From positions 1-5,454 of the forward strand of contig SUPR01000171.1 in assembly GCA_005191425.1 (NCBI GenBank): a stretch of 5,454 nucleotides of DNA. The letters are read 5' to 3'. Source of the DNA: Candidatus Helarchaeota ASGARD archaeon Hel_GB_B. Lineage in GTDB: Archaea > Asgardarchaeota > Lokiarchaeia > Helarchaeales > HEL-GB-B. Position numbers and translations under genes: made by a program. The notes beneath the pieces are model-generated. The model was not told the DNA's origin, did no database searches, and worked only from the letters and a program-made list of their open reading frames with translations. Shown in pieces: positions 270-5,454 of the stretch (positions are counted from its first letter, which is position 1; each line of letters starts with the position of its first letter).

Positions 270-596
270 TTAACTAGATGTTTTTTTACAAATTTTATTA
301 TATACATTTTGATTGAAATTTGGACTCACTAGATATATTTTTCCATATTTTTGATCATTTTTTATTATAAATGAAGCATCTTGTAATACTTTTAAATGAT
401 GTTTTATATTTCTATAAGACATTTGCAGTATTTCAGATATTTGGTGCGCATTATATGGTCTTGTTAATAATAAGTTCATTATTTTCTCTCTAGTATCTCC
501 ACCTTTCCTACCAAATACCCACCAATATGCGGAGTCATCTGAAAACCTTAATATATCTTCATTTTTCCTTATATTTTCATTATCAACATTTGTCAT
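270..596 (-). CDS. ArsR-like winged helix-turn-helix transcriptional regulator (archaeal type)
   Basis: 108-aa ORF. YWWVFGRKGGDTREKIMNLLLTRPYNAHQISEILQMSYRNIKHHLKVL...KYGKIYLVS follows the archaeal ArsR/wHTH pattern as I recall it (W..GGxxRxxI..L..RPxNAxQ[LI]..L..Y..I.HHLxVL....YG..Y..S). A weak SD-like AAGTGA lies just upstream on the - strand. Confidence 0.88.
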   Translation of the reverse strand: MTNVDNENIRKNEDILRFSDDSAYWWVFGRKGGDTREKIMNLLLTRPYNAHQISEILQMSYRNIKHHLKVLQDASFIIKNDQKYGKIYLVSPNFNQNVYNKICKKTSS

Positions 597-1064: not shown

Positions 1065-2153
1065 ATGGGAAAAAATATGAAAATAACAAATTTAGAAACG
1101 GCATGGTTTGAATGGCCTTTATCTATAAAAATTGGAGCAATGCCAAAATTTAAAGTAACTGGGTCAATAGTAAAGGTTTTTAGTGATAATAATAAAGTAG
1201 GTATTGCAGGGACGCATTTTGTCAATTCAGATAATGCATTAATCGCGCATATAGAAAGGTGGAAAAAATTTGTTGTGAATCAAAATCCTTTTGAAGTCCA
1301 AAAAATTTGGAGAGATTTATATAATAATGTTAATCGGATTTTGTTGGGGATTTCACACGCAATTTCAGTCATTGATTGTGCCATATGGGATTTAATAGGA
1401 AAAGAAGTTAATAGACCAGTATATAAAATTCTTGGAGCATTTAGAAATAAAATACCAGCATATGCTTCACTTCCATGGTGGGTAAATCCAAGACAATTAG
1501 AAGCATATTTTAAAGGGATATTGGACCAAGGATTTAAAGGAGTCAAAGTACGAATTGGGAAAAATTTAGAGTGGGATATAAAAGTATTAGAAAAAGCTAG
1601 AGAACTAGGGGGAAAAAATTTTCATATCATGGCAGATGTAAATTCGGGATATAATTTTAGAAAAGCATTAAAGATTGCAAGAGTCTGCGAAAGACTAGAT
1701 TTAGATTGGCTTGAAGAACCAATTCCAAGTGATAATTTAGACAACTTAATGGAATTACGAAAAAAAGTAGATATTCCAATTGCAGGTGGTGAAAATGATG
1801 CATTTATTTGGAGATTTAGAGAGATATTAGAAAAAAGAGCATATGATATTATTCAGCCAGATGTTACAAGGTCTGGTGGTATTACAGAAGTTAAAAAAAT
1901 TGCATCGTTAGCCGAATCTTTTGGTATAGAGTGTATTCCACATATTTTTGGCTTTGGGCCAATACAATACGCTAATCTACAACTTATTGGTACACTCCCT
2001 AATTGTCGTTGGATGGAATATAGCTATATTCCCGCTGAATTTTTAATGACAGATAAAATTGAAATTGATAAAGAAGGAAATGCAATTTTGCCTTCAAATC
2101 CGGGTCTAGGATTTAATTTTAATGAAGAAATTCTAAACAAGTATAAAAAATAA
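1065..2153 (+). CDS. Enolase superfamily, mandelate racemase/muconate lactonizing enzyme family (MR subgroup); probable acid-sugar dehydratase, substrate unknown. Start may be ATG 1077 (MKITNLE).
   Basis: N-terminal capping-domain signature SVIDCAIWDLIGKEVNRPVYKILG. Metal ligands D191 (MADVN), E217 (WLEEP) and E243 (AGGEN). His-Asp dyad D266 (IIQPD)/H293 (CIPH), E318 (WMEY), K161-x-R163 on strand 2, and C-terminal PxxPGLG. Confidence 0.93.
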   Translation: MGKNMKITNLETAWFEWPLSIKIGAMPKFKVTGSIVKVFSDNNKVGIAGTHFVNSDNALIAHIERWKKFVVNQNPFEVQKIWRDLYNNVNRILLGISHAISVIDCAIWDLIGKEVNRPVYKILGAFRNKIPAYASLPWWVNPRQLEAYFKGILDQGFKGVKVRIGKNLEWDIKVLEKARELGGKNFHIMADVNSGYNFRKALKIARVCERLDLDWLEEPIPSDNLDNLMELRKKVDIPIAGGENDAFIWRFREILEKRAYDIIQPDVTRSGGITEVKKIASLAESFGIECIPHIFGFGPIQYANLQLIGTLPNCRWMEYSYIPAEFLMTDKIEIDKEGNAILPSNPGLGFNFNEEILNKYKK

Positions 2154-2405: not shown

Positions 2406-3920
2406 GTGTTCATTTATATGTTTGAAGATGACGACTTTGAAATGCGTATGAAAAATGAAATTGCACCCGTTATTTCACATCATTTAGGAATTTCATTAGA
2501 ATTATTAAAGAGTTTTCCAGTAGAAATACTAAATAGAATATTAACTTCAATAAATATAGTACCAGATGACACTCTTAAACGAATTGTAATCATAAATGCA
2601 AATCATCCCGAGAAAATACCTGATTTAATTGATGAACATTTAGGAATTGGGACATATAATAATGTACAAAATGTTCCTGTATATGATGAAAGTTTGGACT
2701 TAAAAGCTGGTATTCTGGCGATAGTCCCTGAAGATGTACGAGACAAAGTAGAAAGTAAAATAGATGAAATAACTGATAAAGAAAAATTAATAGATCTGAG
2801 TCAAAAACCATTAAATGAACTTTTAGCGGATCTGGGTATTGAAGAAAAAGTGGAAGTCCCTGAAATTGAGGAATATGACGAAAAAAGAGATGTTATTGCA
2901 GGAATTCTTGCAATGGTGCCCGATGAAAATTTGAAAGATGAAATTGAAGAGAAATTAAATGAAGTTGAAGATGTTAATACATTAATCAAATATGCTACTA
3001 TGGAATATAATGATTTTCTCAGGGAGCTGGGAATTGAAAATGAACAGGAATCAATTGGAATGCCATTTGAAAGTGAGATACCAGGTACTTCTGTAGAATC
3101 CATGTATTCATTTCAATCGCCATTTACTAACCGACCTACAGATATAAATGATGATATAAAAGCTGGAATTCTAGCCAGACTACCACCCTCTATAAGAGAT
3201 TTTATTCAAGATAAAATAATGGCTATTAATAATACAGAGACTTTAATAAAATTAAGTAATATGAATTATCTTCAAATTCAAAATGAATTAGGACTCCCAG
3301 TTACAGCACCCGCTCTTGCCCCACCGTCTGTAATAAATCCAATTGATACAGCAGCAAGGAGAGAACAACAAATCGAAACTTCAAATGCAAGCCAATCATC
3401 TCAGTCCCAACCAGACCAACACTTAGATGAACAAACTCAAGAACGATTAAAACAAAGAAATGAAGAAATAGAAAAATACTCTGAAATCATAATTAAAATA
3501 GTCGAAAAAGTTTGTGGTAAGGAACCTCCAAAAAATTTTGAAGAAAAAAAGAAGATATTGAAGAGAATATATCCATCCCGGTTAAAACGCCTTGTTGAAA
3601 TTTTTAAAGCACAAAAAAATAAGAAACGAATATTACTAATGTTTGATTGGTTTGTTATATCGCAGCGTATCGAGGAAATAGAAACTTATGTAGAGCATTG
3701 GCAAGGAGTTAGCGCTGGCATAGGTGGTTATAGGGCAGCAATTAATGTTAGTAGATATGACACTATTATAGAACATTTAAAAGAAAATGAACTAAAACAA
3801 ATTATAAATACATCTTTAAAGGCATTAAATAAAATTCATGACCCAAATATTCAAGTTAGAGCTGTAGGAGTTGAGGAAATTAAATTAGTTGCCAATATCT
3901 TATTACATAAAGTTCGGTGA
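2406..3920 (+). CDS. Hypothetical modular protein (~500 aa): three 48-49-aa repeats, Pro/Gln/Ser linker, basic C-terminal domain. Probable true start is ATG 2418.
   Basis: Long uninterrupted ORF in stop-rich AT DNA with internal amino-acid repeats. GGTG at 2405-2408 sits 9 nt upstream of ATG 2418 and looks like an archaeal SD, so the GTG at 2406 is probably the RBS rather than the start. Confidence 0.9.
   Translation: MFIYMFEDDDFEMRMKNEIAPVISHHLGISLELLKSFPVEILNRILTSINIVPDDTLKRIVIINANHPEKIPDLIDEHLGIGTYNNVQNVPVYDESLDLKAGILAIVPEDVRDKVESKIDEITDKEKLIDLSQKPLNELLADLGIEEKVEVPEIEEYDEKRDVIAGILAMVPDENLKDEIEEKLNEVEDVNTLIKYATMEYNDFLRELGIENEQESIGMPFESEIPGTSVESMYSFQSPFTNRPTDINDDIKAGILARLPPSIRDFIQDKIMAINNTETLIKLSNMNYLQIQNELGLPVTAPALAPPSVINPIDTAARREQQIETSNASQSSQSQPDQHLDEQTQERLKQRNEEIEKYSEIIIKIVEKVCGKEPPKNFEEKKKILKRIYPSRLKRLVEIFKAQKNKKRILLMFDWFVISQRIEEIETYVEHWQGVSAGIGGYRAAINVSRYDTIIEHLKENELKQIINTSLKALNKIHDPNIQVRAVGVEEIKLVANILLHKVR
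2697..3296 (+). repeat. Three intragenic protein repeats (2697-2840, 2889-3035, 3153-3296)
   Basis: R1 DLKAGILAIVPE-DVRDKVESKIDEITDKEKLIDLSQKPLNELLADLGI; R2 DVIAGILAMVPDENLKDEIEEKLNEVEDVNTLIKYATMEYNDFLRELGI; R3 DIKAGILARLPP-SIRDFIQDKIMAINNTETLIKLSNMNYLQIQNELGL. They align with a single one-residue gap. Confidence 0.93.
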
Positions 3921-4068
3921 TAACTTAATAACTTTTTATAATAATTTATTTTCTATTAATAATTAATATTATTTTAAATAGATACAAAATTTAATAAATA
4001 AAAATTCAGTAATTGATTTCAGAAAATAATAGTTTTTTCATCATAGTATCAAAATATGGAAGATAATT

Positions 4069-4860
4069 ATGGTAAAATTTAAGACAATCGATGATTTATT
4101 AAACTCCGATTTTGTTATATTAGAAAAGCTGGAAAAATTACTTAAAATTGCAGATAAAAACCCTGAAAACATGAATAAAGAACAGATGGTGGAGATACTC
4201 TTATATGATACAGTTCTAGGACTTGATGAAATATTAAATATATTGTTTACAGAATTTGAACTGAGGGAAATCTGGAAATATATTGAACCAAGAAGTAATA
4301 ATTTTAATTATAAAAAGTCAAATATTATTGGTATTTTAATCAAAATTCTACCGACTAAAGGACAACGAAAAATAGAAACAGTGATTGAAGAAGCCATTGA
4401 TGAAGATATGATTTTTAGACCGTTAATTTATTATTTATTCATCATGATGCCTGATGGGAGGGCAGTATTTACCTTCAATTTCAGACCTATCGAAATTGGT
4501 GATCTAACTATGTTTACAAGTGCCCTTAATGGAATTTCAATTTTGTTGGAAGAATTAACTAAAAGAGATAGGATTGAAAATATAGAGTTAAGTACTAAAG
4601 AGCAAAAAGACACAGAACTGGAATTAATGTTTGAATATGGTGAATTAGAATTAAATTATTCTTTAAATAAGAATTTAATCGGTATTTTAATTGTGAATAA
4701 AGAAACCGAGAAAATTAGGCAAGCTTTAAAAGATTTTATTTCTGAATTTGAAAAAAAATATGGAAATCATTTTTTACCTGAATGGAATGGGCGAATCTCA
4801 GATTTTTATTCAGCTAAGCATCTGGTCTATAAGATTTTTTCGAATTATTTGGAATTTTAA
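4069..4860 (+). CDS. Protein with a C-terminal longin-like domain and N-terminal helical (HeH/SAP-like) units
   Basis: aa 118-259 show the beta-beta-alpha-beta-beta-beta-alpha-alpha longin order: IYYLFIMMPDGRAVFTFNF, then helix DLTMFTSALNGISILLEEL, strands IENIEL / LELMFEYG / LIGILIV, then IRQALKDFISEFEKKY and WNGRISDF..AKHLVYKIF. This pattern is typical of Asgard longin-like proteins as I recall them. Confidence 0.75.
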   Translation: MVKFKTIDDLLNSDFVILEKLEKLLKIADKNPENMNKEQMVEILLYDTVLGLDEILNILFTEFELREIWKYIEPRSNNFNYKKSNIIGILIKILPTKGQRKIETVIEEAIDEDMIFRPLIYYLFIMMPDGRAVFTFNFRPIEIGDLTMFTSALNGISILLEELTKRDRIENIELSTKEQKDTELELMFEYGELELNYSLNKNLIGILIVNKETEKIRQALKDFISEFEKKYGNHFLPEWNGRISDFYSAKHLVYKIFSNYLEF

Positions 4861-4869
4861 TAGAAATAA

Positions 4870-5454
4870 TTAGACATCTAAAACTGTAGAAATTCTTTGA
4901 AGTTCAGGGCCCGTTGTTTTTCTACCTATTATTGCGCCATAACTATTTGCAATGATACCTGAAGACCCAACCATGTCTACTCCTTGATTTACTGAACCAA
5001 TATCACAATTTATTTTAAAAAATTCTTCAAGAAAATTTAATTCGTCAATCGAAGAATTGGGATTAACAAGAAGTCCTTTGTTGGTCAATAGGGCATTAGA
5101 GCCCACAAGTTTTGATCCTGCAACCGTGCCTTGAATTACATCATCAACTAAACATGTATCCTTAATAATTTGAATAATATTTTTATTATAATCTGGATTT
5201 ATTATTGCAGCCCTATCATTTATTAAAATATTATTTCCAAGTGCAGTTAAATCGGACGGTATTATCTCTAATTGTATATCTAAGTCTAACTCAATTATGA
5301 TTTGTTTAAAATTTGATAGCTCTTTTCCTTCAACAATTTTTGGTAATAGAATACCCTTCGAATTTCCTGTCATTAAAATACCGATTATTCTGCTATTCGA
5401 TAAATGAGTTTTAAATACAGGGACATTTAATGTTTCAGATATGATATTTTGTAA
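4870..5454 (-). CDS. eif6: Translation initiation factor 6 (aIF6/eIF6, ribosome anti-association factor), 5'-partial
   Basis: Motifs GNSKGILLP, ALGNNILINDRAAIINP, GTVAGSKLVGSNALLTNKGLLVNP, GSVNQG and ANSYGAIIGRKTTGPEL. The frame stays open past the listed Met (5373) to the window edge (LQNIISETLNVPVFKTHLSNSRIIGIL-MTGNSKG), so the real start lies outside the window. There is no eukaryotic C-terminal tail. Confidence 0.97.
   Translation of the reverse strand, partial: LQNIISETLNVPVFKTHLSNSRIIGILMTGNSKGILLPKIVEGKELSNFKQIIIELDLDIQLEIIPSDLTALGNNILINDRAAIINPDYNKNIIQIIKDTCLVDDVIQGTVAGSKLVGSNALLTNKGLLVNPNSSIDELNFLEEFFKINCDIGSVNQGVDMVGSSGIIANSYGAIIGRKTTGPELQRISTVLDV

Follow-up and report, generated by a model that had tools for sequence, protein, structure and literature searches.

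An undescribed, Asgard-restricted helical unit, present three times in a Helarchaeota repeat protein

The locus and the repeat protein

Asgard genomes receive close study for what they may reveal of how eukaryotic cell organisation arose, and annotation is lacking for a large share of the encoded proteins. The window analysed here is a 5,454-nucleotide stretch of low-GC archaeal DNA, contig SUPR01000171.1 of Candidatus Helarchaeota archaeon Hel_GB_B. It encodes a hypothetical protein containing three copies of a small helical domain, called the "AGILA unit" below. The features of the protein and of the genes around it are collected in Table 1.

The longest open reading frame (ORF) of the repeat protein begins with GTG at position 2406 and gives a reading of 504 residues, to which all residue numbers refer. 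Nevertheless, the true start is probably the ATG at 2418, giving 500 residues, because the homologues, which are 500-512 residues long, begin with MF[ED]D at the corresponding methionine. The four additional N-terminal residues of the GTG reading (VFIY) are thus probably not translated. The near-identical cluster representative of the protein is a 500-residue hypothetical protein from a Candidatus Helarchaeota metagenome-assembled genome (MAG). None of the public runs listed with a match to the window was an RNA run; the DNA matches were hydrothermal-vent and marine-sediment metagenomes.

Table 1. Features of the window and, in the last three rows, of methyltransferase genes at other loci of the family
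Feature	Residues	Nucleotides	Strand	Remarks
ArsR-type regulator		270-596	-	ORF and family scans
Enolase-superfamily enzyme		1065-2153		ORF and family scans
Gene for the repeat protein	500 aa	2418..3920	+	probable ATG start; ORF open from GTG 2406
N-terminal five-helix domain	9-81 (model 9-78)	2430..2648	+	motif K.[DE]I.P.I...L..L....LN.I
AGILA unit R1	94-147	2685..2846	+	four short helices; net charge -9
AGILA unit R2	158-211	2877..3038	+	four short helices; net charge -10
Pro/Ser/Glu linker, disordered	212-245	3039..3140	+	pLDDT 37-45; 30% identity among orthologues
AGILA unit R3	246-299	3141..3302	+	orthologous to the unit adjoining the C-terminal domain in the sister subgroup
Conserved P..NP[IV]DTA segment and helix	306-327	3321..3386	+	alignment and model
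Basic C-terminal domain	342-504	3429..3917	+	pI 9.6, net charge +9; helices and one beta-hairpin (model 342-503)
ORF downstream of the repeat-protein gene	263 aa	4069-4860	+
aIF6 gene, 5'-cut		4870-5454	-
Eco57I/TaqI_C-type methyltransferase, locus L004		1881-3932
Eco57I/TaqI_C-type methyltransferase, locus L005		6250-8112
Eco57I/TaqI_C-type methyltransferase, locus L013		5147-7192

The AGILA units

Positions 2697-3296 of the window code for three units of about 52 residues (D98 to L297) that follow the pattern D-x-x-AGILA-x-x-P ... LI ... LG, the AGILA motif being situated at residues 101, 165 and 253. The coordinates given in a preliminary description of this DNA were exact, and its consensus, its invariant AGILA, P, D, K, LI and LG positions and its linkers of 16 and 39 residues all read as had been claimed. 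When the units are aligned with one another, their BLOSUM62 local scores are 89-104, compared with 23-26 for shuffled sequences (z 14-16; none of 1000 shuffles scored as high). Upon aligning the profile of the five three-unit orthologues with itself, R1R2 superimposes on R2R3 with a probability of 99% and an E value of 6e-18, and R1 on R3 with an E value of 4.6e-8; no further cryptic copies emerge from this alignment. These comparisons, together with the modelling described below, show that the three units are paralogous copies of an acidic four-helix domain of about 52 residues.

The units have been preserved at the protein level far better than the segments between them, the identity among the five orthologues being 66-81% for the units and 18-51% for the linkers. 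At the DNA level the likeness among the units is limited to a 28-nucleotide core (TAAAAGCTGG.ATTCT.GC...) of 68-79%, in agreement with the short similarity of R1 and R3 noted earlier. When 51 units are placed in a tree, a separate orthologous clade corresponds to each of the three positions. R3 falls together with the C-proximal unit found in a sister subgroup, whose members have two N-terminal domains and two units (the 2+2 form), while R1 and R2 cluster (97/98 support) with the N-proximal unit of that subgroup and the single unit that shorter forms possess. The separate clades, the difference in conservation and the near disappearance of DNA similarity bear out the proposal that the duplication is old and has been under selection. 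The residues that every unit has (D, A-G-I-L, P, spaced I/L, LS and LG) look structural. Polar residues characteristic of a position are also kept, for example in MEY.DFLREL of R2 and MNY.QIQ.ELG of R3, a pattern that would be better explained by distinct docking surfaces at the three positions than by one site present in triplicate.

An AlphaFold2 model of the full-length protein, built from a 41-row alignment, has a mean pLDDT of 83 and a pTM of 0.47. The same four-helix pattern is found three times, at residues 95-142, 159-207 and 247-294. The units are separated by segments of 10-34 residues with pLDDT below 50, and linkers modelled as disordered, each with pLDDT below 50, lie at 83-91, 213-244, 299-306 and 330-337. 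A lone unit, modelled from 51 unit sequences, folds with a pLDDT of 92.2 and a pTM of 0.74 into helices at positions 2-12, 16-27, 32-39 and 43-49 of its 54 residues. The repeated pattern and the high confidence of the lone unit indicate that the units are equivalent, independently folding domains arranged like beads on a string, so the layout suggested in the preliminary description holds in the predicted structure. The arrangement of the domains relative to each other carries no confidence, given the pTM of the full-length model. The units have net charges between -2 and -10 (mean -4.2), whereas the charge of the C-terminal domain is +9, with a pI of 9.6.

A solenoid of the HEAT, ARM or TPR kind was considered and rejected: the units are spaced by segments with pLDDT below 50, the pTM is 0.47 and the linkers are poorly conserved. 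The N-terminal domain was likewise rejected as a cryptic fourth unit (hhalign probability 0.2%, best pairwise z 2.8, no result from self-alignment with hhalign). Profile comparison shows no relation of this domain to the AGILA unit; it is itself duplicated in the sister subgroup.

The repeat had been described as belonging to no named family. This is borne out by searches of Pfam, NCBIfam, PADLOC and PHROGs, in which nothing significant was found for the whole protein, its relatives or 43 single units, and by comparison of the full-length, unit and C-terminal-domain profiles with PDB sequences, which gave nothing below an E value of 0.04. Foldseek found no match in the PDB at E<=1e-3 with either the full model or the lone unit, shape searches of the ESM Atlas gave no informative match, and a feature search of the Atlas with the C-terminal domain gave no usable one. 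Literature searches found no description of a family of AGILA units. The results thus contain neither a confident match to a described family nor a predicted structure in which the units are not equivalent.

Family architecture and gene neighbourhoods

At E<=1e-3 the full-length profile matches 24 of 1.84 billion representative proteins, and the unit profile gives 32 matches among 5.8 billion proteins, all belonging to the same family; the C-terminal-domain profile likewise finds this family only. The names given to the records are all Helarchaeota, Lokiarchaeota or Promethearchaeota, with the single exception of a MAG labelled Deferrimicrobium; the preliminary description had named Asgard-restricted homologues as one sign of a new repeat family. 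The contig in question (DATKTP010000137.1, loci L008 / L011), filed as bacterium Candidatus Deferrimicrobium sp., carries the family gene among the same neighbours as in Helarchaeota loci, including a uL16 (Ribosomal_L16) gene, and is probably misbinned or mislabelled. Each of two genomes searched has one copy of the family gene, and an alignment-based locus search of species-representative genomes found 3 related loci.

In the plan common to the family, as these sequences show, an N-terminal five-helix domain is followed by one to three AGILA units, spaced by disordered linkers, and then by a basic C-terminal domain that is nearly invariant. The clade of the window has gained the third unit, the sister subgroup has the 2+2 form, and forms of about 345-390 residues have one N-terminal domain and one unit. 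Two paralogues, P0039 and P0043, retain the N-terminal domain and one unit, while in place of the C-terminal domain they have a lysine-rich stretch followed by one hydrophobic helix at the C-terminus (Kyte-Doolittle 2.7-2.8), predicted to be a transmembrane tail anchor. P0043 comes from the same assembly as P0030, a form having the C-terminal domain. In another branch the C-terminal domain is kept behind a different N-terminus and a GFDEHLYFTD tail is added.

The core signature of the C-terminal domain, HP.RL ... W..S..IE.I..V.HWQ ... G.[YF].A.I...R[YF]D, is better conserved than any other part of the family. A prediction of a complex of two copies (residues 338-504) scored 0.00, which speaks neither for nor against association. 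The P..NP[IV]DTA segment (window 3321-3350, residues 306-315) directly follows the last unit and lies between low-confidence stretches. Its residues P306, N311, P312, D314 and T315 are invariant in 19 homologues, and residues 313-314 are assigned as strand by DSSP. The segment may therefore add a strand to the hairpin of the C-terminal domain (425-429/442-445), or it may be a linear motif.

Protein P0037, which has the C-terminal domain alone in common with the repeat protein, contains its own duplicated N-terminal unit of about 83 residues (37-119 and 144-226) with the pattern IA[GE]F[DN]...P.G.L.YL; duplication of modules therefore recurs in the wider family. The IIAGFD...LNYL region of P0032-type relatives gives an hhalign probability of 1.7% against the unit profile and is not established as a divergent unit.

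Twelve gene neighbourhoods were examined, and their order is conserved within subgroups only. In the three-unit clade an enolase-family gene, the family gene, a gene for 264-266 residues and aIF6 follow one another. The block of the 2+2 clade (L002, L003, L011 and L012) comprises PPDK, a gene for 289-375 residues, DCD, a divergent uL16 gene upstream of the family gene, the family gene itself and an ABC ATPase of about 550 residues; beyond the ATPase lie a gene for about 255 residues (in 3 of the 4 loci) and then a Ras/Arf-like GTPase. The family gene of these two clades is thus found near large-subunit maturation genes (aIF6 and uL16, respectively), which may be due to chance. Next to one-unit forms, in differently labelled Asgard MAGs, an Eco57I/TaqI_C-type N6-methyltransferase of 620-683 residues adjoins the family gene in three loci (Table 1); two of these loci, L005 and L013, also have genes for a PCMT-family methyltransferase and MazG close by. 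The contig of the closest relative (L001) has a GmrSD-type (type IV restriction) gene at 2406-4079, just upstream of the enolase-family gene, without a counterpart in the window.

The 263-residue ORF downstream of the repeat-protein gene has no Pfam or NCBIfam match; it shares 70% identity with the counterpart from a MAG labelled Lokiarchaeota. The C-terminal 140 or so residues (approximately 118-260) are a member of a domain family present in many copies, with 7-12 matches per genome in Helarchaeota, situated in open frames of 270-1700 residues. This domain family appears similar to the expanded Asgard roadblock/longin-like families. In two genomes having the 2+2 form, the relatives found of this domain all lie off the contig of the family member. 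The 263-residue gene was rejected as an obligate partner of the repeat protein, since it adjoins the family gene only where the entire block is syntenic.

Possible role of the protein

The protein is tentatively regarded as a modular, multi-specific adaptor with a C-terminal localising element, a reading that we favour over the others considered here. The multivalent binding scaffold suggested in the preliminary description is a reasonable but conjectural idea. Each of the acidic helical modules on their flexible linkers would have its own docking partner, a protein or a peptide. The fold would depend on the residues common to all units, and specificity on the polar residues peculiar to each position. 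The C-terminal part would fix the location of the protein, as suggested by the two paralogues in which a lysine-rich stretch and a transmembrane tail anchor take its place, and the N-terminal modules would be what the protein presents there. The equivalent folds and the selection on the units, their variable number (1, 2 or 3), the exchange of the anchor, the division of charge, the restricted distribution and the weak likeness in shape to partner-binding modules (below) are all consistent with an adaptor. Against it stands that no operon partner common to the three-unit, 2+2 and one-unit forms was found in the 12 neighbourhoods, and the localising role of the C-terminal domain is deduced only from the anchor exchange and the charge.

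Among the alternatives, the least unlikely is that the acidic units act within the molecule or as spacers, either masking the basic C-terminal domain (by autoinhibition or polyanion mimicry) or setting the reach of the N-terminal domain. The charges of the units and of the C-terminal domain (+9) are strongly complementary, the number of modules differs between clades, and the positions that never vary among the units look structural, as would be expected of such a role. However, the conserved MNY.QIQ.ELG of R3 and MEY.DFLREL of R2 exceed what a spacer needs, the tail-anchored paralogues retain a unit in spite of having lost the C-terminal domain, and the full-length model gives no confident interdomain arrangement. 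It is doubtful, and rather more so than a spacer function, that the AGILA unit is an Asgard-specific module binding peptides or ubiquitin-like proteins, and that the family are tethers at membrane or organelle surfaces recruiting different cargo or partners. If true, this would be an archaeal adaptor system invented in Lokiarchaeia, analogous and not homologous to eukaryotic tethering and adaptor proteins.

The resemblance to known helical modules offers further possibilities. CUE and UBA domains are also short, helical, often arranged in tandem and separated by linkers, and in both these and the AGILA unit a hydrophobic-proline junction follows helix 1. Were the units divergent CUE/UBA-like domains, the protein would be a receptor binding ubiquitin through tandem units in the Asgard ubiquitin/ESCRT system. 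This is improbable: CUE and UBA domains are compact three-helix bundles of about 40 residues, whereas the AGILA unit is modelled as four helices over 54; their MFP and di-leucine signature is not conserved; the residues before the proline vary (IV, MV, RL, NI, QL); and neither the whole protein nor any of the 43 units (at E<=1) matched the Pfam models of CUE (PF02845) or UBA (PF00627), nor did a PDB sequence. By shape, the nearest small natural domains, all weak, are MLLE, the paramyxovirus P XD, GA and protein A modules, which are partner-binding helical modules. A remote homology to the eukaryotic MLLE/PABC domain, with binding of short linear peptides of the PAM2 type, is slightly less probable still than the CUE/UBA proposal; PF00658 is not among the families matched by the 43 units at E<=1. 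The P XD, the streptococcal GA module and the protein A B domain have three helices and lack the additional fourth helix of the AGILA unit, which is without sequence relation to them and belongs to a cytoplasmic Asgard protein with another domain context. The four-helix-bundle ribosome-binding domain of Zuotin (Zuo1) scores at noise level and without a sequence match, and the nearness of aIF6 and uL16 genes is limited to two clades with whole syntenic blocks. The least probable reading makes the units degenerate nucleic-acid-binding repeats of an (HhH)2-like type, such as those of topoisomerase V. Their size of about 50 residues with paired helical hairpins would suit such repeats, and there are sub-threshold matches to IMS_HHH_1 in 3 of the 43 units (best E 0.02) and to Topo-V_HhH_2_2nd in P0022 (E 0.03, 14.8 bits, compared with a cut-off of 27). 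The acidic character of the units argues against a nucleic-acid role of this type, HhH proteins are absent from the fold-search lists, and on direct reading the hairpin loops (VP-ED, LP-PS, QKP, TME, NMN) have no conserved glycine and the units no glycine-rich h-x-G-h-G hairpin.

The AGILA unit is an undescribed, Asgard-restricted small domain in a three-domain family. Three undescribed domains (the N-terminal domain, the AGILA unit and the HWQ C-terminal domain) travel together, their architectural variants, including tail-anchored paralogues, have been mapped, and their boundaries are clean enough for expression. The interest is modest: the family has neither a eukaryotic counterpart nor an assigned function nor a conserved partner, and Asgard MAGs contain many lineage-restricted families of this kind; it may prove to be one more of them. 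If the modules serve for docking on an anchor associated with the membrane or the ribosome, the family would add a lineage-specific adaptor system to the cell-biology toolkit of Asgards.
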